A stretch of 63,186 bases of DNA, filler included, from Methanobacteriota archaeon (GTDB lineage: Archaea; JACRDV01), in assembly GCA_024860865.1 (NCBI GenBank). It is 10 parts of 10 records of this genome, joined end to end, with 100 filler letters (N's around TTAATTAATTAA, not from the genome) between each part and the next. Parts side by side here need not be neighbours in the genome. Positions count along the whole stretch, not along the records: positions 58,830 to 63,186 come from JACRDV010000158.1; 9 more parts are not named here. One strand, given 5' to 3'. This document shows positions 3,974 through 63,186 of the stretch, piece after piece (position 1 is the stretch's first letter; each line of letters opens with the position of its first letter). The notes beneath the pieces are model-generated. The model was not told where the DNA came from and ran no database searches. It saw only the letters and a list, made by a program, of their open reading frames with translations. The translations under genes and the position numbers were made by a program.

Positions 3974-4331
3974 GGGCCCGTAGCTCAGCCAGGGAGAGCG
4001 CCTGGCTTTTAAAGGGGATGGCGAGAGATGAATCCCGAGTTTATTAAAGATGAAAGAAAATATAGAGCAAGAAGAGTGCATAAAGTATATAGAAAACTTG
4101 CTAAAGAAATATTAGCTAGGGTAAAGACCAGTAAAACACTAAAAAGAGATTTTGATTGGGCATTTTTTCCCACAAGTGTTTGCGATAGAAGAGCAGTAAA
4201 GGGTAATAAAACACATTCAATTGAAAATTTGACAAAAATACAAAATAAATTTCAAGAAATTCTAAAAAATTTTTATCTCGTCACCTCTTAAAGTAACCAG
4301 GTGGCCCGGGGTTCAAATCCCCGCGGGCCCG
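3974..4331 (+). tRNA. tRNA-Lys(UUU) with 284-nt intron at 37/38 (4012-4295)
   Basis: 5' exon GGGCCCGTAGCTCAGCCAGGGAGAGCGCCTGGCTTTTA; 3' exon ACCAGGTGGCCCGGGGTTCAAATCCCCGCGGGCCCG; BHB helix CTTT/AAAG with 3-nt bulges. Confidence 0.92.
4028..4291 (+). CDS. basic 87-aa hypothetical protein encoded inside the tRNA-Lys intron
   Basis: ORF fills 264 of the 284 intron nt; AGGGG upstream; no family recognised. Confidence 0.5.
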   Translation: MNPEFIKDERKYRARRVHKVYRKLAKEILARVKTSKTLKRDFDWAFFPTSVCDRRAVKGNKTHSIENLTKIQNKFQEILKNFYLVTS

Positions 4332-7600: not shown

Positions 7601-7924
7601 ACTCGACAACCGACTGAAGGCCGTGCCAGAGAAGGTGGATTGCGATTTGGTGAAATGGAGCGAGATTGCTTAATTAGCCATGGTGTAGCATTAGTGCTAA
7701 AAGAAAGATTGCTTGATGAATCCGATAAATACCAAGTTCTTGTATGTTCAAAATGTGGGATGGTTGCAGTTCGTGATGAAGCTCGTGGCAGGGATTATTG
7801 CTCAGTTTGTGGCGATGAGAGCGAAATCTATTCTGTAGAAATGTCATATGCATTCAAATTGCTTTTAGATGAGCTCAAATCGCTATGCATTGCTCCGCGG
7901 CTTAGATTGCAAGATATTGTTTGA
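4610..7924 (+). CDS. rpoB: RNA polymerase subunit B (unsplit)
   Basis: [37 protein letters not shown]; likely TTG start at 4610 after GAGGTGG. Confidence 0.97.
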
Positions 7925-7934
7925 GGTGAAAATC

Positions 7935-10900
7935 GTGCCAATCGTAGGTGCTCCGAAAAGAATATCAAAAATTGATTTTGGAGTGCTCTCGCCCGACGAA
8001 ATCAGAAAGATGTCTGTCATCAAAATTATAACTGCTGATACATACGATGAAGACGGTTACCCTATTGAAAGAGGACTGATGGATCCAAAGCTTGGCGTCA
8101 TAGATCCTGGCCTCCGCTGCAAAACCTGCGGGGGACGAGTTGGCGAATGTCCCGGCCACTTTGGGCATATTGAGCTTGCAGCACCAGTTATACATGCTGG
8201 ATATGCAAAGCAAATCTATGAAATGCTTAGAGGCACTTGTCATGCTTGCAATAAAATTCTGTTATCTGGAAAACAAACTGAACATTTTAAGAAAACAATG
8301 GAAGAAGCTGAAAAAAATGGAGAGGATAAGTGGGTTATTTTGGATAAAATCTTACAAACTACCAGAAAAGCAAAAAAGTGCTTAAAATGCGGAACCGCAC
8401 AAAAAGAGATGAAATTTGAAAAACCGACTACTTTAATTGAAGATGGACATAGATTAACGCCATCTGATATTCGAGACCGTCTAGAAAAAATCCCGAACGA
8501 AGACGCCCAGTTATTAGGAATTGATACTAAAGTTGCGCGCCCAGAATGGATGGTTTTAACTGTTTTAACGGTTCCACCAGTGACTGTGCGTCCTTCTATC
8601 ACTTTAGAAACGGGAGAACGATCTGAAGATGATTTAACCCATAAGCTAGTTGATATCCTTAGAATTAATCAACGTTTGCGAGAAAACAGAGAGGCAGGAG
8701 CCCCTCAACTTATTATTGAGGACTTATGGGAATTACTACAATATCACATTACAACATATTTTGATAACGAAGTTTCTGGTGTTCCACCGGCAAGACACAG
8801 GTCTGGTCGCCCACTTAGAACACTTGCTCAGCGCTTAAAAGGAAAAGAAGGGAGGTTTAGGAGCAATCTTTCAGGTAAACGTGTTAACTTTTCTGCGAGA
8901 ACTGTCATATCTCCTGACCCAAATATCAGCATAAACGAAGTTGGCGTGCCTGAAGTAGCTGCAAAAGAACTCACTGTTCCTGAAAAAGTTACATCCCGCA
9001 ATATTGAGGCGCTAAAACAACTGATAATAAAGGGTCCAAATGTACACCCCGGGGCAAACTATGTTTTACGCCCAGATGATAGAAGAATTAAGATTACTGA
9101 TGAAAGTAAAGATAAAATTATTGCGGAATTGGCTCCGGGCTACACTGTTGAAAGGCATCTTGCAAATGGAGATCTTGTTCTTTTTAACAGGCAACCATCG
9201 CTTCATCGGATGTCAATAATGGCTCATGAAGTAAAAATCATGCCATATAAAACTTTTAGGCTAAACCTTTGCGTATGCGTAGCCCCTGAAACAAAACTAA
9301 CACTCGACGGATTTCAAAGACCTATAGAGCAACTTAAAAATTGTTGGAAGGAGTCTCAAGTAATAACCTATAAAAACAATCAAAAGATTTTTAAAACGTC
9401 TTTATCAGCTTTTTGGAGCTTGAAGCCAAAAGATTATGGCAAACGCATACTTAAGATAAATACAAACAACGAGAGAGAATTAATAGCAACTGAAGATCAT
9501 CCAATCTATACGATAAGGGGTTTGGTAAAAGCTGGTGATATAAAAATTGGTGATAGGGTTATCGTTTACCCAATAGAATTCCCTGAGTATGAAGATGTAG
9601 AAAAGGTAATTCTAACTGAAAATGATATAGTTAAAAGTGCTACAAAACAAACTTATGTTAAACATCTAATAAGTGAATTGAAAAAAAGAAATCTACTACC
9701 ACTTGCTCTATTAAACAACCCGAAAGCTTTGATATTAACTAAGTTACTTGGTCATATTTTTGGAGATGGGGCATTAATTTTGAAAGATGACGTAGGAAGA
9801 GCTGTATTCAGAAGTGATGTTGAGGATTTGGAAGATATACAAAATGATATTAGAATGCTTGGATTTGAGCCTGGTGAGATAAAAACAAGAGAATATAATG
9901 CTGAAATAACTACATACGAGAGCAAGAAATTAAAAGTTAGTTCTGTTGGAAGCAGTTTTGAAGTAAGAAACAAAGCATTTGCTACTTTGATGAAGGCTCT
10001 TGGTGCACCAAATGGGGATAAAGTTTTGTTAGATTATAAGGTTCCAAAATGGATTTTGGAATCGCCAAAATACGTTAAGAAAGTATTTTTGGCCGCATAT
10101 TTTGGTTCTGAATTGACAATACCTGCCCTAAGGAAAAATTGCAAAAAACTGTTCAGGGAACTTGTGTTTAAGATAAGTAAGATAGAAGATAAAATAAATT
10201 ATGCTGATGACTTTATTAAAGGTATCGAATTCTTGCTAAAAGAATTTGGCATATCCATATCGTCAATCTCAAGAGAAAATGGAAATATTAGAAAAGATGG
10301 TAAAAAGACAAAAATAACAATAGTAGCACTTTGCTCAGACTTAGAATCTGCTATCAATTTCTTTGGGAAAATAGGTTACATATACAATAGGAAAGCAGAT
10401 TCTATCGCAAGACTAGCATATCAATATCTGAAATTTAAGAAGGAAGAACTTAAAAAACGTAAGAAGATTCTATCTGACATAAAGGTTTGGAATAGAAAAA
10501 GTGAAAGCTTACTTTCTATAGCTAGAAGGAATGGTATAAGCGTAAGCACATTATATAATTGGAGAAGTAGGGGTGTTAACGAAGAATCACTTAACACATC
10601 GCCAGATTTCCTTGATTTTGATGAATGGTTAAAAACTAATTGCTATGATGTTAAAAGTGGGCTTGTAATTGAGAAAGTGATTAGTGTTAAAGATACTTTT
10701 ACACCATATGTTTATGATATAACTACAACTGCTGACACACATAATTTTATTGCTAATGGCTTTCTGACTGGAAACTGCCCTCCCTATAATGCAGACTTCG
10801 ATGGGGACGAAATGAACCTACATGTAATGCAAGGTGAAGAAGCGCAAGCTGAAGCACGAATTTTAATGCGTGTTCAAGAACAAATTCTTTCACCGCGCTT

Positions 10901-12077
10901 TGGTGGACCAATTATCGGCGGAATTCATGATCATATCTCTGGAGCATTTATATTGACTAGAAAAGAGACCGCCTTTACCAAAGGAGAAGCTTACCAATTG
11001 CTTAGAGCTGCTGGAATTGAAAAAGATCTCCCAGAACCAGCTATTAAAGAACGCAAAGCTGAATACTGGACTGGCAAACAACTTTTTAGTATGGCGTTGC
11101 CAGAAGACTTTAATCTTAGTTATAAAGCAAAATTTTGTACAAAATGCGAAAAGTGTCTGAAAGAAAAATGCCAAATTGATGCATATGTTGTGATAAAAAA
11201 TGGTCAGTTAATTTGTGGAGTTATGGATGAAAAATCATTTGGCGCTTTTGCTGGAGACTTACTTGATCGGATAGTTAAAGATTATGGTACTGATGTAGCA
11301 AGACAATTTCTAGATTCAGCAACTAAACTTGTAGTTAAATCGCTTATGAAAAAAGGTTTTAGTGTTGGAATTGATGAGGAAGATATACCAACTGAGGCAA
11401 AAGAACGAATCGAAGATATATTGGACCGCGCGAAACAAAAAGTTAACGACCTCATTGATGCCTACAAAAAGGGAGAACTTGAACCCCTACCAGGTAGAAC
11501 TCTAAAAGAAACTCTTGAAATGCAAATAATGAGAGTCTTAGGTGAATCCAGAGATAAAACTGGTAAAATTGCTAGCGAGTATTTGGGTCTTAGTAATCAC
11601 GCTGTTTTGATGGCTAAAAGCGGTGCACGCGGAAGTATGCTAAATCTTACCCAAATGGCCGCTTGTGTTGGACAGCAAGCAGTTCGAGGGGAACGGATTC
11701 ATCGTGGTTACCGCAATCGAACCTTACCTTATTTTAAGCCAGGAGACCTGGGTGCAGAAGCTCATGGATTTGTAAGATCAAATTACAAAAGTGGACTTAA
11801 TCCGCTCGAATTTTTCTTCCATTCAATGGGGGGTAGAGAAGGATTAGTTGATACTGCAGTCAGGACTTCACAAAGTGGTTACATGCAACGGAGATTAATA
11901 AATGCGCTCCAAGACCTCAAGGTTGAATTTGATGGAACAGTGCGCGATAATAGAGGCGTTATAATCCAATTTAGCTATGGCGAAGATGGAATTGATCCCT
12001 CAAAAAGTGATTGGGGTAAAGCAGTGAACGTTTATAAAATAATTGAGAAGGTTTTAGGTCCGGAGGCCAAAGCTTGA
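7935..12077 (+). CDS. rpoA1: RNA polymerase subunit A' containing an intein
   Basis: CKTC...CPGHFGH, NRQPSLH, NADFDGD, AVRTSQSGYMQRR; GTG start 7935 after GAGGTG. Confidence 0.96.
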   Translation: MPIVGAPKRISKIDFGVLSPDEIRKMSVIKIITADTYDEDGYPIERGLMDPKLGVIDPGLRCKTCGGRVGECPGHFGHIELAAPVIHAGYAKQIYEMLRGTCHACNKILLSGKQTEHFKKTMEEAEKNGEDKWVILDKILQTTRKAKKCLKCGTAQKEMKFEKPTTLIEDGHRLTPSDIRDRLEKIPNEDAQLLGIDTKVARPEWMVLTVLTVPPVTVRPSITLETGERSEDDLTHKLVDILRINQRLRENREAGAPQLIIEDLWELLQYHITTYFDNEVSGVPPARHRSGRPLRTLAQRLKGKEGRFRSNLSGKRVNFSARTVISPDPNISINEVGVPEVAAKELTVPEKVTSRNIEALKQLIIKGPNVHPGANYVLRPDDRRIKITDESKDKIIAELAPGYTVERHLANGDLVLFNRQPSLHRMSIMAHEVKIMPYKTFRLNLCVCVAPETKLTLDGFQRPIEQLKNCWKESQVITYKNNQKIFKTSLSAFWSLKPKDYGKRILKINTNNERELIATEDHPIYTIRGLVKAGDIKIGDRVIVYPIEFPEYEDVEKVILTENDIVKSATKQTYVKHLISELKKRNLLPLALLNNPKALILTKLLGHIFGDGALILKDDVGRAVFRSDVEDLEDIQNDIRMLGFEPGEIKTREYNAEITTYESKKLKVSSVGSSFEVRNKAFATLMKALGAPNGDKVLLDYKVPKWILESPKYVKKVFLAAYFGSELTIPALRKNCKKLFRELVFKISKIEDKINYADDFIKGIEFLLKEFGISISSISRENGNIRKDGKKTKITIVALCSDLESAINFFGKIGYIYNRKADSIARLAYQYLKFKKEELKKRKKILSDIKVWNRKSESLLSIARRNGISVSTLYNWRSRGVNEESLNTSPDFLDFDEWLKTNCYDVKSGLVIEKVISVKDTFTPYVYDITTTADTHNFIANGFLTGNCPPYNADFDGDEMNLHVMQGEEAQAEARILMRVQEQILSPRFGGPIIGGIHDHISGAFILTRKETAFTKGEAYQLLRAAGIEKDLPEPAIKERKAEYWTGKQLFSMALPEDFNLSYKAKFCTKCEKCLKEKCQIDAYVVIKNGQLICGVMDEKSFGAFAGDLLDRIVKDYGTDVARQFLDSATKLVVKSLMKKGFSVGIDEEDIPTEAKERIEDILDRAKQKVNDLIDAYKKGELEPLPGRTLKETLEMQIMRVLGESRDKTGKIASEYLGLSNHAVLMAKSGARGSMLNLTQMAACVGQQAVRGERIHRGYRNRTLPYFKPGDLGAEAHGFVRSNYKSGLNPLEFFFHSMGGREGLVDTAVRTSQSGYMQRRLINALQDLKVEFDGTVRDNRGVIIQFSYGEDGIDPSKSDWGKAVNVYKIIEKVLGPEAKA
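9276..10775 (+). mobile_element. 500-aa intein with LAGLIDADG homing-endonuclease region in RpoA'
   Basis: Starts CVAPET, ends HNFIANGFLTGN|C; LLGHIFGDG and FLAAYFGSE blocks; removal restores RLNLCV-CPPYNADFDGD. Confidence 0.95.
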
Positions 12078-14551: not shown

Positions 14552-14641
14552 GGGCCCGTGTTATAGTCTGGATTAGCATCCAGGGCTCCGGTCTTCGGGA
14601 GATACCCTGGGACCCGGGTTCAAATCCCGGCGGGCCCGCCA
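14552..14641 (+). tRNA. tRNA-Arg(CCG) with 12-nt intron at 37/38 (14592-14603), encoded CCA
   Basis: GGGCCCG/CGGGCCC acceptor, CAGGG-CT-CCG-G|TCTTCGGGAGAT|A-CCCTG, BHB CTCC/GGAG; D-stem weak. Confidence 0.85.
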
Positions 14642-32664: not shown

Positions 32665-32784
32665 TGCCTCGGACGGGATTTGAACCCGTGTTCTCGGCTC
32701 GATTGGCCACAGGTTTGGAGACCACCTGTTGAGGCCGAGATCCTTAACCGGGCTAGACTACCTTAGCCAGCTTACGCTTGAGGC
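32665..32784 (-). tRNA. tRNA-Glu(CUC) with introns at 5/6 (32763-32779) and 34/35 (32703-32730); duplicated acceptor strand at 32803-32809
   Basis: Spliced: GCCTCGGTAGTCTAGCCCGGTTAAGGATCTCGGCCTCTCGAGCCGAGAACACGGGTTCAAATCCCGTCCGAGGCA. Confidence 0.85.
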
Positions 32785-58829: not shown

Positions 58830-59261
58830 AAGGATGTCTGCATTCAGAATAACTACAGGGCATTTGATTTCAAGACAATAGATGAGCGTGCTTACACCCT
58901 TGAAAGAGAGCCCATCTTTCTGATCAATAAAAAAGATAGATATGGTTCAATACAAATCGGTGATGTCAGGACAGCAACAGTAGAAAAAACGATAGTTGAC
59001 ATGATATTTTTAGTCACCAGAAAAAATTATCCGCTTTCTGGCAGGGAAATAGGGAGGACAATTTACAACATCCTCGAAACAAAGTCCTTGAACATCGGCT
59101 TGATGATACGCTATGCAACAAGAAGAAACATGAGCGCAGAAGTCACAAGAATACTCGCAAAGCTATACCAGAGATACCCTCACCTAAAGGTTTTGGAAAG
59201 ATTTGCAGCCAGAGAAAAAAGCATAGAAAAAGTTGTAAACGAAATCACAGGAGAATACTGA
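58830..59261 (+). CDS. type IV TA antitoxin (AbiEi-like), 5' cut by gap
   Basis: Open from contig start; ATVEKTIVD motif; coupled to the downstream toxin. Confidence 0.65.
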   Translation, partial: KDVCIQNNYRAFDFKTIDERAYTLEREPIFLINKKDRYGSIQIGDVRTATVEKTIVDMIFLVTRKNYPLSGREIGRTIYNILETKSLNIGLMIRYATRRNMSAEVTRILAKLYQRYPHLKVLERFAAREKSIEKVVNEITGEY

Positions 59262-60415
59262 TGGCTACGCTGTTTGGAGAACATGAATCAAAATTGTTGG
59301 GTAATAAAAAGTCCTTCGAAAGAAGGAATGTCGAAAAATTCAGAAGAAAGTATCGAGATGTGCAACTGATAGAGAAAGCCATTTATGTATTAGAATACTT
59401 GTCACAGTTGCGAAGTGTTGGCTTAAATCCATTGTTTAGAGGCGGTTCTGCCACACAGTTTATGCTTCCCACTCCCATAAGAAGGCTCAGCATCGATCTT
59501 GATATAGCAACAAGCCAACCAGAGAAGTTGCTAGAATGCATGAAGTCGATTAATCTAAAATTTGATAAAAAGTTTTTTGATTTTACTAAAGACAGAAGGC
59601 CTGGACTGCATTACAGGATAACAACCCCAACATATTACACCCCTGGGTTTTCTGGATTCTTTTTGTTGGATGTGTTTGAAAAAGAACCGAAATATAAAAC
59701 ACGGATGATGAAACTAAAAACAGAGTACTATGAATCCAACGCAAGAGCAAAAATACCCACAGTAAATTCAATGCTAGGAGATAAGCTATCCACACTTGGT
59801 CTTAGAACAATTGGTCTTCATAAAAACAGGCCGTCAATGGAACAAAGCAAGCAACTTTACGACATAATTCAGCTGTTAGACCATGCAACTGATTTTAGAG
59901 ACATATATGATGCATATTCTAATTGCTTCAAGATTCAAGTGGGTTTCCGAGGATTAAAAATCTGTCTAGATGACGCTCTAGATGACTTGGCATATACGTT
60001 AAAATTATTTGTAATAAGCCAACCAACTGGAGCTCTTCCAGCTAAAATGAGGGATGACGCTGCGTACATAAGAGATGGTATAAGAAAAGTTGAGAGTCAT
60101 CTGAGAAGGGATATAAGGTTTACATATCTCTCAGCGCGGGTTGGTGCTGCAAAAACACTGTTTGCATCTAGGGTTCTAAAGTTAGTAAATGAGAGAAAAC
60201 TTACGAGCAAAGAAGCAACTCAGATATTAAGACTTCTAAAAGATATAAGCGGAAAAGTTGCTGATAAAGATTTTATTGAAAAAATCATACCAAAAGTGAG
60301 ACAAAAGGAAAAAGCGATTAATCCAAATGAACTGAGAGGAAATGCTCCGCTAGCGCTCATATACATATACGGCTACTGGTACCCCTTTGAGCTGGTTGAC
60401 GAAGTAAGAACATGA
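59261..60415 (+). CDS. AbiEii-like nucleotidyltransferase toxin
   Basis: FRGGSA...RRLSIDLD, GDKLST, KQLYDI. Confidence 0.85.
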   Translation: MATLFGEHESKLLGNKKSFERRNVEKFRRKYRDVQLIEKAIYVLEYLSQLRSVGLNPLFRGGSATQFMLPTPIRRLSIDLDIATSQPEKLLECMKSINLKFDKKFFDFTKDRRPGLHYRITTPTYYTPGFSGFFLLDVFEKEPKYKTRMMKLKTEYYESNARAKIPTVNSMLGDKLSTLGLRTIGLHKNRPSMEQSKQLYDIIQLLDHATDFRDIYDAYSNCFKIQVGFRGLKICLDDALDDLAYTLKLFVISQPTGALPAKMRDDAAYIRDGIRKVESHLRRDIRFTYLSARVGAAKTLFASRVLKLVNERKLTSKEATQILRLLKDISGKVADKDFIEKIIPKVRQKEKAINPNELRGNAPLALIYIYGYWYPFELVDEVRT

Positions 60416-60700
60416 ACACCAATCCTTCTTCTACGTTATCCACGTCCTACCCTTTATAATATATTGAGCAAAAAAAGCACTCGTGCTATAATCAATAGGT
60501 ATTTGGGAAAGTGGGGTATTCACACCCAATTAGGCCCACTATTTTGAATATTCGACCCAATGTTCTAAAAAACTGAATGTTTTAGCGTAAATTCATTGAT
60601 TCTATCGCAACCTACAAGAACTTTTAAAAATAATAATGAGATAAATTATTATAGGAAACTGGTCTTTCATACTTTAGCGGGGTTAATCGGGCTCCACCTT

Positions 60701-60866
60701 AGCGGGGACCGCAGCATTTGCGGCCGCAATAGGGTAGCCAGGAAATCCCGTCGGACGTATGCTAAATATAGCATATGGGCAAAGCTCATAAGGTCGTCCT
60801 AGACCAATGAGGTCAAGGATTTCCTAAGAGACCCGAAGATCGGAAGTTCAAATCTTCCCCCCGCTA
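60701..60866 (+). tRNA. initiator tRNA-Met(CAU) with introns at 7/8 (60708-60729), 30/31 (60755-60783) and 37/38 (60791-60830); duplicated acceptor strand at 60676-60682
   Basis: Spliced: AGCGGGGTAGGGTAGCCAGGAAATCCCGTCGGGCTCATAACCCGAAGATCGGAAGTTCAAATCTTCCCCCCGCTA; A1-U72 and three G-C anticodon pairs. Confidence 0.88.
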
Positions 60867-61018
60867 TCAAAATTTGACAACCCATACTTTCTGTAATTTA
60901 AAAAAAATAACTTCTTGCAAAAACTAAAACAAACTTTTTCCTAGCCATCAAAATGAGTAAACTTTAAAACCTAAGAAGTTGTTTATTAGAAGAATTTAGT
61001 TTGAATAGGGGTGTTGAA

Positions 61019-61288
61019 ATGTCCGCTAGTGAACTTGTAATAGCTGAAAACTGCAAAAAGGCCGGCCTTTCTGACGATGAAACAAAGGTCTATATCGCTA
61101 TGGTTAAAATTGGAGCGCGTCAAGCTTCTCCTAAGGAAGTTGAAGCAATAATGAAGGAAAGCAAGATCCCGGCTAAAGGAAAATTCACTAGTGTGCTTCA
61201 GCAACTGGTCAGTAAAGGATATGCTAAGCGCGAAGTTCGAGAAAAACGTTCTCGTTATTACCTCAACGAAGGGAAAAAACTCTTCTAA
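61019..61288 (+). CDS. winged-helix (TrmB-like) DNA-binding protein
   Basis: GLS..E.KVY.A...L..LV.KG...R. Confidence 0.7.
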   Translation: MSASELVIAENCKKAGLSDDETKVYIAMVKIGARQASPKEVEAIMKESKIPAKGKFTSVLQQLVSKGYAKREVREKRSRYYLNEGKKLF

Positions 61289-61458: not shown

Positions 61459-62961
61459 TCACTTTAGCTGGCCCGATAAATCTCGTATAATAATTGGGAT
61501 CTTTAAAAGCAAGTCAGAGGCAATTAATTGATAGCCATGCTCTTTTGCGCACATATCGCCAGCTAATCCATTAATAAAAGCTCCCGCAACTGCTGCTCTA
61601 AAAGGTTCAATTCCTTGTGACAGAAAAGCACCGACTACTCCTGCCAATACATCTCCAGTCCCACCAACGGTCATTCCGGGATTTCCAGTTAGATTAATTT
61701 TAACTCGGCCAGCAGGATCAGCTATTATATCTTTGTTTGCCTTCAACAAAAAAGTAATTTCAAGTTTTTTTGCTTGCTCTTTTACTATCTTAATTCTGGA
61801 TTCCAATTCTAATGGCAAAGTGACGCCAGTTAAAATTCTAAATTCTCCGGAATGCGGGGTAACGACACAAGGAGCGCCTGCAAGTGCAGTTGGTTTGCTA
61901 GCTAAAGCTTTAATTGCATCAGCATCGACTAAAAGGGGCAATTTTAATTCTTTTACCGCTTCAAATACCTCTAAAACAACCTCAAACGTCTTTGGGTCGG
62001 TTCCCAATCCAGGACCTATCACTACTGCTGTTGATTTCTTAATTGAATCTAACAGTTTAGGAAGTGCCCCACGCGAAAGAATATCGCCAGGCATTTTTCT
62101 CGTAATTATATCAGGTGATATTGCATTAATTGCCCAAGCAACTTTTTCTGGTGCAGCAACAATCGCAAGGTCAACCCCAGCCCTAAGAGCTCCCAATGCT
62201 GTGAGAGCCGGTGCTCCTACATAATCGATACTCCCACCGATTATTAGCAATTTTCCAAAATCGCCTTTATGTGAATTAAGCGGTCTTGATTTAATTGCAA
62301 GTGTAACATCACCTGGTCCAGCATAAATCTCAGCTTCTTTAGGAATTCCAATATCAGCCACAATAATTTCTCCAATATATTGTTCTGCTTTCACCATTCC
62401 AATTTTTTTATCATGAAAAGTTATAGTAAGATCAGATTTAATAGCAGTTCCTAAAACTTCCCCAGTGTCAGCATTAATACCAGTTGGTATATCAATTGAA
62501 ACTTTGAATGGTTTAGCAGAATTAATTAACTCAACAATTTGTGCGAACAAACCTTTCACTGGAGTTTTGAGCCCAATTCCTAAAATTGAGTCAATAATTA
62601 CATCAACATCTACGGCCTTAAGCTGTAAGAGCCCAGAAATAGGATTCAAAGTTACATTTGGAGCTTTTTCAAGAGCTCTCCAGTTCTTCTGTGCCTCAGA
62701 TGAACGAATTGACTCTGGTCGACCAAGCAAAATCACTTCTACGTTAGCGCCAGCTTGCGCTAAGTATCTGGCTGCAACAAAACCATCTCCCCCATTGCCT
62801 CCTAACCCTGCGAACACTTTAACTCCAAGATTTTTTGGGTTGAAACGCTTGGCAATTACTTCAGCAATTTTCTTGCCTGCATTTTCCATTAATTGTAATT
62901 TAGAGACTCCAAAGTATTCAGAATTAAATTCTAAGGCTCGCATCTCCTCAACAGATAACAT
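61459..62961 (-). CDS. nnr: bifunctional NAD(P)HX epimerase/dehydratase
   Basis: LMENAG, GNGGDG, DIPTG, HKGDFG, TPHSGE, GGTGDVLAG. Confidence 0.95.
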   Translation of the reverse strand: MLSVEEMRALEFNSEYFGVSKLQLMENAGKKIAEVIAKRFNPKNLGVKVFAGLGGNGGDGFVAARYLAQAGANVEVILLGRPESIRSSEAQKNWRALEKAPNVTLNPISGLLQLKAVDVDVIIDSILGIGLKTPVKGLFAQIVELINSAKPFKVSIDIPTGINADTGEVLGTAIKSDLTITFHDKKIGMVKAEQYIGEIIVADIGIPKEAEIYAGPGDVTLAIKSRPLNSHKGDFGKLLIIGGSIDYVGAPALTALGALRAGVDLAIVAAPEKVAWAINAISPDIITRKMPGDILSRGALPKLLDSIKKSTAVVIGPGLGTDPKTFEVVLEVFEAVKELKLPLLVDADAIKALASKPTALAGAPCVVTPHSGEFRILTGVTLPLELESRIKIVKEQAKKLEITFLLKANKDIIADPAGRVKINLTGNPGMTVGGTGDVLAGVVGAFLSQGIEPFRAAVAGAFINGLAGDMCAKEHGYQLIASDLLLKIPIIIRDLSGQLK

Positions 62962-63029: not shown

Positions 63030-63186
63030 GTATATGAGAGTGATACCTCACCCAAACCGGACATGAAGATTTCCCTCATCCGGCTTTTTCCACTGTTACC
63101 GCTTTGCACGGAGTCAATGTTTTGTTGCCGCCACATTGACCGGTTGATTCCATTCGGTGCCTCAGTTCGGTTTTATATTAACCTAC
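63030..63186 (-). ncRNA. 3' part of a group II intron-like RNA (D3-like, D5, short D6), no ORF visible
   Basis: D5-like AAGCCGGATGAGGGAAATCTTCATGTCCGGTTT (63054-63086); TGAGGCACCG...CGGTAACAG just upstream. Confidence 0.6.

Follow-up and report, generated by a model that had tools for sequence, protein, structure and literature searches.

A candidate initiator tRNA gene with three introns, at positions 7/8, 30/31 and 37/38, in an archaeal genome

Can an initiator tRNA gene that is cut into four pieces still give rise to a working tRNA, and how would its introns be removed if one of them carries only a weak splice motif? This question is raised by positions 60701-60866 on the plus strand of an archaeal sequence of 63,186 nt (the whole stretch of DNA that was analysed, hereafter the window), which has ~37% G+C and encodes, among other proteins, an unsplit RpoB, RpoA' with an intein, aCPSF1/FttA, a proteasome subunit and HerA/NurA. 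An initial annotation had read the locus as an initiator tRNA with three introns, the third of them possibly compound. Our analysis confirms, at the level of sequence, the observation of a three-intron initiator tRNA gene, and we think it likely that this is a working tRNA-Met gene whose transcript would be spliced by the ordinary archaeal protein pathway, with the third intron leaving as a single piece.

When the four exons were joined (Table 1), a 75-nt cloverleaf was obtained and ARAGORN called the spliced product tRNA-Met(CAT), so the coordinates, the intron lengths and the positions 7/8, 30/31 and 37/38 that had first been assigned were all correct. Archaeal initiator tRNAs are marked by an A1:U72 pair and by an anticodon stem closed with three consecutive G:C pairs (29-31:39-41), and in the ARAGORN drawing the spliced product shows both marks. 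Read from the sequence of 60701-60866, the gene encodes no CCA at its 3′ end. Compared with two uninterrupted Asgard initiator genes (L097 and L098), the spliced product is identical at 66/75 positions, and the differences that fall in helices, at 7:66, 27:43 and 28:42, are compensatory.

The spliced product was also scored on a profile whose 33 members are distinct uninterrupted initiator genes of 75 nt, drawn from 58 metagenome loci. The product aligned end to end (profile 1-75) with 79.1 bits, a score that is not independent over positions 8-30, since a pattern derived from exon 2 had served to retrieve the profile genes. When three segments with the lengths of the introns were removed at random, this value was not reached in any of 200 trials, the top score being 59.7 bits. 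The cloverleaf, the splice-motif geometry described below, the 66/75 identity and the profile score together support the reading as an initiator tRNA with three introns. On the whole window, at E<0.01, the profile found only 60831-60866 (profile 40-75) and 60730-60758 (profile 8-36), and no second initiator-like sequence was detected within the 63 kb by this search.

It had been expected that standard scanners would miss this gene, and this was borne out for ARAGORN as well as for Rfam, both at gathering score and at E<=10, where a single 14-bit partial match over the T-arm was all that Rfam returned for 60701-60866. On the window, ARAGORN reported a single tRNA, tRNA-Arg at 14552-14641, and Rfam at gathering score reported one other, at 32665-32767. 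Because the gene is cut into four pieces, standard annotation misses an essential tRNA gene, and after automatic annotation a genome would appear to have no initiator tRNA.

Table 1. Positions of the features discussed, counted along the window
Feature	Positions	Strand	Description	Basis
TATA-like box TTATTATA	60646-60653	+	23-30 nt before the AGCGGGG copy at 60676	by eye
Probable 5′ leader	60676-60700	+		8-mer matches to spliced product; folds; strain contigs
Exon 1	60701-60707	+	tRNA positions 1-7, 5′ acceptor strand	ARAGORN, comparison, profile
Intron 1	60708-60729	+	22 nt at 7/8	HBh' motif
Exon 2	60730-60754	+	positions 8-30, D-arm plus most of the anticodon stem's 5′ strand	
Intron 2	60755-60783	+	29 nt at 30/31	
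Exon 3	60784-60790	+	positions 31-37; anticodon CAT at 60787-60789	ARAGORN
Intron 3	60791-60830	+	40 nt at 37/38	relaxed hBHBh'
TGAG in intron 3	60808-60811	+	perfect CTCA partner, out of register for the splice motif	
GGATTTCCT in intron 3	60817-60825	+	perfect 9-bp complement of exon 2 60740-60748 (D-loop, D-stem)	
Exon 4	60831-60866	+	positions 38-73: 3′ anticodon strand, variable loop, T-arm, 3′ acceptor strand, discriminator A	
tRNA-Lys(UUU)	3974-4331	+	284-nt intron 4012-4295 at 37/38	
tRNA-Arg(CCG)	14552-14641	+	apparent 12-nt mini-intron at 37/38, CTCC/GGAG central helix	by eye
tRNA candidate	32568-32456	-	113 nt; looks class II with an insertion; missed by both scanners	
tRNA-like candidate	32809-32665	-	145 nt; Rfam aligns 32767-32665 only, with two acceptor mismatches	

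Evidence on whether this host splices tRNA introns comes from the other tRNA genes of the window. A scan for a T-arm followed by an acceptor strand gave five tRNA candidates, of 87, 113, 145, 166 and 358 nt. The longest, tRNA-Lys, was missed in the window by ARAGORN and by Rfam, and its intron is bounded by a perfect hBHBh' motif with CTTT/AAAG paired 4/4, an outer helix of 7 bp and an inner helix of 5 bp; its spliced form of 74 nt is tRNA-Lys(ttt) by ARAGORN. Because this intron is of the textbook hBHBh' type and four of the five candidates are longer than 110 nt, the host clearly splices tRNA introns. The tRNA-Lys intron is nearly filled by an open frame of 87 codons (4028-4291), to which no Pfam match was found. 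In the case of the candidate at 32809-32665, the 7-nt acceptor strand found 42 nt further upstream is perfect, and no convincing splice motif was found for the gap, the best 5′ register having 3/4 central pairs and an inner helix of 1 bp.

As set out in the Yoshihisa review (PMC4090602), the motif named bulge-helix-bulge (BHB) consists of a 4-bp central helix between two 3-nt bulges and is cut two nucleotides 3′ of the strands of that helix, and in introns at 37/38 the first two anticodon bases sit in the central helix. With this geometry, each motif was scored exactly at the boundary that the cloverleaf sets. All three pairs of boundaries fit, those of introns 2 and 3 in relaxed form, with 4/4, 3/4 and 3/4 central pairs and inner helices of 6, 9 and 2 bp for introns 1, 2 and 3, respectively, and each intron has at least one flanking helix of at least 2 bp. 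By the counts of central pairs intron 1 is canonical and introns 2 and 3 belong to the relaxed class. For intron 1, the helix GCGG/CCGC noted at the outset pairs 4/4 in the register of the splice motif, with an inner hairpin of 4-6 bp and without a strict outer helix. The long hairpin that had been noted in intron 2 is present as a 9-bp inner hairpin; the central helix has 3/4 pairs (one of them G-U) and no outer helix accompanies it. For intron 3, CUCA (60785-88) faces UAAG (60825-28) with 3/4 pairs and a C-A mismatch, the inner helix is formed by GG (60792-93) with CC (60823-24), and the outer helix is the anticodon stem itself, which amounts to 1 bp in the unspliced transcript and, after removal of introns 1 and 2, to 5 bp. 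Moving a boundary by 1-2 nt, in any of the introns, abolished the motif or altered the product, except for the equivalent 38/39 register of intron 3, in which the outer helix is lost.

How often such geometry arises by chance was estimated from decoys, i.e. 'introns' of the same length placed at every window position on both strands. The observed geometry was reached by 17/126208 decoys for intron 1, by 8/126194 for intron 2 and by 1086/126172 for intron 3. The third motif is thus the least informative when taken alone; if the 5-bp anticodon stem is demanded as well, 33/126172 decoys remain. By the null models of the Asgard census preprint itself (10.64898/2026.10.13.758758), the relaxed class with 3 of 4 central pairs is permissive.

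The sequence in front of the gene shares segments with the tRNA. Within the probable leader, AGCGGGGT (60676-60683) equals spliced positions 1-8 and so spans the intron-1 junction, TCGGGCTC (60687-60694) does likewise for spliced positions 27-34 and the intron-2 junction, and ACCTT (60696-60700) is complementary to positions 9-13 in exon 2 (60731-60735). For comparison, an 8-mer in common with the spliced tRNA is present in only 35/3510 18-nt segments of the window. When 60676-60866 was folded, the best structure had the 3′ acceptor and anticodon strands paired with the leader copies, and 60696-60701 with 60730-60735. The copies of the 5′ half upstream of the gene may be the remnant of an intron-less 5′ half. 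The transcript probably starts near 60673-60676, which would give a leader of ~25 nt, and the TATA-like box in front of it may act as a promoter element; by eye, TATTATAT occupies -24..-17 of the window's tRNA-Lys gene. A direct repeat of 9 nt, TTAGCGGGG, lies at 60674-60682 and 60699-60707, 25 nt apart, and its upstream copy runs on into the match to spliced positions 1-8.

Contigs of three DNA runs (X1, X2 and X3) cover the gene region and allow related strains to be compared. X2 (record 7), which spans 60400-61100, carries 12 substitutions and 7 indel events, none of them between 60673 and 60877, and X3 (record 9, 60535-60871) has four of these flank events in common with X2 and no difference in the gene. 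In X1 (record 2), the only differing positions are 60713 and 60716, both in intron 1 and outside the 4-bp core of its hairpin; the change at 60713 breaks one of the two outer pairs of this hairpin. With 19 events in 496 flank bases, ~7.9 would be expected in the 205-base block under a Poisson distribution (P ~4e-4). The conserved block begins three bases before the upstream exon copy, which fits a transcript start there and constraint on the leader and the introns besides the exons. In the DNA contigs of the runs that cover the region, no joints were seen that would reveal polymorphism in intron presence.

The weak point of the gene is its third intron. When the anticodon arm and intron 3 were folded locally, the best structure had -27.7 kcal/mol and used a shifted CUC/GAG register, the relaxed motif had -18.1 kcal/mol, i.e. 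9.6 kcal/mol above the best, and the CTCA/TGAG arrangement had -16.7 kcal/mol. By the same measure, the motif folds of seven other 37/38 introns from initiator genes lie 0.6-6.4 kcal/mol above their best folds (two further rows of that table were left out), so that among the eight introns compared the present motif is energetically the weakest. When the cloverleaf was enforced, the intron-free fold had -50.1 kcal/mol, nearly the same as the -51.3 of the unconstrained fold, and cloverleaf plus motif gave -40.5. Two competitors of the motif appear in the folds, the shifted CUC/GAG register and a 9-bp duplex with the D-arm. The latter is formed by GGATTTCCT, a segment that overlaps the 3′ strands of the intron-3 motif and pairs with the D-arm in the best folds; 9 bp were reached by 16/2000 shuffles and by 6/1539 window pieces, pieces with masked N runs of the window being skipped. 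The unease of the initial annotation about this intron was therefore justified with respect to the strength of the motif, which is the weakest of the eight, but the nested structure that it proposed instead found no support.

In that nested reading, a 17-nt inner piece at about 60811-60827 would leave first, and a canonical motif would then remove the other 23 nt. Several of the observations behind it were accurate: TGAG does lie about 20 nt from the 3′ splice site (19 nt before it), and deletion of 60811-60827 does bring CTCA/TGAG into the canonical register. Moreover, CTCAT pairs with ATGAG in the best fold of the whole precursor. We tried all 465 inner pieces of at least 10 nt within intron 3, and five of them, all of 17 nt and starting at 60810-60814, produced CTCA/TGAG with 4/4 pairs and a 5-bp outer helix. 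As the initial annotation had already noted for 60811-60827, no clean inner BHB comes with them, 60811-60827 having 0/4 central pairs and the four equivalent deletions at most 2/4, with flanking helices of 0-1 bp throughout; thus, no inner piece that creates a canonical outer motif has a BHB of its own. In addition, the outer motif would have no inner helix after the 17-nt deletion, and the intact 40 nt already carry the relaxed 3/4 motif CUCA/UAAG, correctly placed at the outer boundaries. A literature search on nested tRNA introns in archaea turned up no such case. Since its inner intron would be without a splice signal, we rate the nested model as very unlikely. The two strands TGAG and TAAG could also serve one intron in two conformers, the splice sites being independent half-motifs in two folds: the 5′ cut would be made with CTCA:TGAG (60808-11) beside a GGTC/GACC hairpin and the 3′ cut with CTCA:TAAG beside the anticodon stem. 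Both partner strands exist, but with the TGAG partner the 5′ site is placed not in a 3-nt bulge but in an internal loop (3x2 or 2x1), and this fold has -16.7 kcal/mol vs -18.1 for the single relaxed motif; cutting in two conformers therefore seems to us improbable. A weak motif with strong competing folds might instead mark a decaying copy in which intron 3 can no longer be removed, the initiator tRNA being supplied by another gene. Against this, the four exons are perfect and their changes with respect to relatives compensatory, the contigs of diverged strains show no differences across the gene apart from the two intron-1 changes of X1, and no other initiator-like sequence is present in the 63-kb window by profile; we give a decaying copy very little credence. 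Intron 3 appears to be a single intron whose marks are weak, rather than one intron nested in another.

A further alternative concerns the 5′ end. If the upstream copy were the real exon 1, the mature 5′ end would lie at 60676 and intron 1 would be 47 nt long (60683-60729), with a decoy copy of the exon inside it. The mature product would be unchanged, as AGCGGGGT is identical to spliced positions 1-8, and both the distance to the TATA-like box (by eye) and the best fold, which pairs the upstream copy and not 60701-07 with the 3′ acceptor strand, agree with this arrangement. The splice motif argues otherwise: with the upstream copy the central pairs are again 4/4, but the inner helix has 1 bp and there is no outer helix, whereas the inner helix of the downstream copy has 6 bp. 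We thus regard an upstream exon 1 as unlikely and keep exon 1 at 60701-60707.

For the preferred reading, with exon 1 downstream and a single intron 3, we infer that the transcript is spliced, and spliced by enzymes of the protein type. A splicing endonuclease (EndA) would cut two nucleotides 3′ of each strand of the short central helices, and an RNA ligase would join the exons; neither a gene for a broad-specificity EndA nor one for an RtcB-type ligase was found among the 31 window proteins scanned. Introns 1 and 2 would be recognized through self-contained motifs of the HBh' type, in which exon bases contribute to the central helix and the intron has a hairpin of its own, and intron 3 as a single intron through a relaxed hBHBh' motif with the anticodon stem as outer helix. 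A stretch of 7 nt separates introns 2 and 3, and G31 is both the third bulge base of the 3′ site of intron 2 and the first pair of the outer helix of intron 3. Because intron 2 interrupts the anticodon stem, which is the outer helix of intron 3, the order of removal we infer is that intron 2 would most likely leave before intron 3 is cut. An obligatory order of removal for closely spaced tRNA introns is described in the tRNAscan-SE 2.0 paper (PMC8450103).

The complementarities of leader and intron might themselves take part in such ordering. The leader could be a conserved 'surrogate 5′ half', whose pairings, together with the match between intron 3 and the D-arm, build the order of splicing into the transcript; this is a speculative proposal that we consider unlikely as it stands. 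Its copies of the two 5′ strands that are occupied by introns 1 and 2 (positions 1-8 and 27-34), with the complement to positions 9-13, could keep the precursor's 3′ half in shape and provide intron 1 with an outer helix, and the 9-bp match could keep the third motif closed until the D-arm folds. The order encoded by these pairings would be introns 1, 2, then 3, followed by 5′ trimming. Alternatively, an intron-less ancestor gene may have left the leader as a fossil, which would then testify to a later gain of introns 1 and 2. The junction-spanning exon copies of the leader and the complement between intron and exon are small leads on ordered removal or on the gain of closely spaced introns.

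Relatives of the gene were searched by its exons. With the 3′ exon and up to 3 mismatches, 9/400 genomes of the phylum around a Freyarchaeia genome were matched, all at 3 mismatches, and the 3′ exons of these Asgard initiator genes (L091-L099) are accordingly 33/36 identical to that of the window gene. They contain 0, 1 or 2 introns, which lie in the D-loop and at 37/38; positions 7/8 and 30/31 are uninterrupted in all of them. In contrast to the window gene, they encode CCA. An intron at 37/38 is present in 6/9 of them, and its central helix on CUCA has 3/4 pairs in five and 4/4 in one, so an imperfect central helix is common at this position. A metagenome search with a degenerate exon-2 pattern gave at least 82 matches in at least 80 loci (L106-L185). 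Introns at 7/8 or 30/31 were absent from the 82 metagenomic matches listed, as from the nine Asgard genes, and the window gene widens the catalogue of initiator-tRNA intron positions with respect to the 91 other initiator genes listed here. The exact 36-nt 3′ exon had no match in genome contigs and none in metagenome contigs, and with the whole 166-nt gene as BLAST query, five genomes yielded chance-level matches only, of which the two inspected were other tRNAs.

Among the 82 metagenomic matches listed, 60 are uninterrupted at the sites examined and 15 have a 37/38 intron, most of these 15 also with an insertion in the T-loop (by eye). Another 7 have an intron of ~31 nt after acceptor-stem position 4 together with C33 in the anticodon loop. 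By eye, these 7 (e.g. L122, L129 and L143) resemble the window gene in that the initiator tRNA is interrupted within its first eight positions, but the intron follows position 4 and not 7, the genes have a single intron, and they carry C33.

Multi-intron tRNA genes are already known; what belongs to the present gene is the 7/8 and 30/31 positions, the weak third motif and the complementarities of leader and intron. Three-intron genes are textbook knowledge for Thermoproteales (PMC4090602, PMC8450103, PMC4033280), with 'up to three' given in two of these sources (PMC8450103, PMC4033280), an example from the Yoshihisa review being tRNA-Pro(UGG) of Pyrobaculum islandicum with introns at 25/26, 56/57 and 37/38 (PMC4090602). 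In the features these sources describe, the window gene is similar, with three introns predicted to be spliced by proteins, one at the canonical and two at non-canonical positions, with HBh'-type and relaxed motifs and with neighbouring introns that would need ordered removal. It differs from the Thermoproteales example in the tRNA concerned, in the positions 7/8 and 30/31 and in the ~37% G+C of its host, which does not group with Thermoproteota in an RpoB tree that leaves it unplaced. In Atabeyarchaeia and Freyarchaeia, introns are reported in 92-95% of tRNA genes, with several introns in more than half (PMC11291895), and the census preprint gives up to five intervening sequences per tRNA gene and shows that annotators miss about 30% of these (10.64898/2026.10.13.758758). 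Like the tRNA genes of the Asgard classes Atabeyarchaeia, Freyarchaeia and Jordarchaeia as these two sources present them (PMC11291895; 10.64898/2026.10.13.758758), the window gene is interrupted by several introns, is missed by standard annotators and has relaxed motifs with 3 of 4 central pairs, which are common there.

The host lineage appears without a close relative among the matches listed in the collections searched. None was found for the window among the 400 genomes of the phylum of the Freyarchaeia genome, in which a primase-like protein of the window is matched by 364/400 genomes at E<=1e-60, with a best full-length identity of 57-59%. RpoB has at most 65% identity to the matches listed in the sampled collection, and the RpoB tree, built from 75 rows including the window after 5 of 80 fetched loci with a longest frame of at most 900 aa had been left out, leaves the window unplaced.

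Some further features of the window were noted. The frame of RNA polymerase subunit A' (7869-12077, plus strand) contains an intein, matched by Intein_splicing over residues 483-967 and placed between Rpb1 domains 2 and 3. Downstream of the initiator tRNA gene, a match to a group II intron domain (63034-63088, minus strand) scores 41.7 bits vs the Rfam gathering value of 40 and adjoins an NAD(P)H-hydrate repair gene (61459-62961); no reverse-transcriptase frame was seen beside it up to the end of the window. On the upstream side, a gene for an AbiEii-like nucleotidyltransferase toxin (59261-60415, plus strand) ends 285 nt before the initiator tRNA gene.
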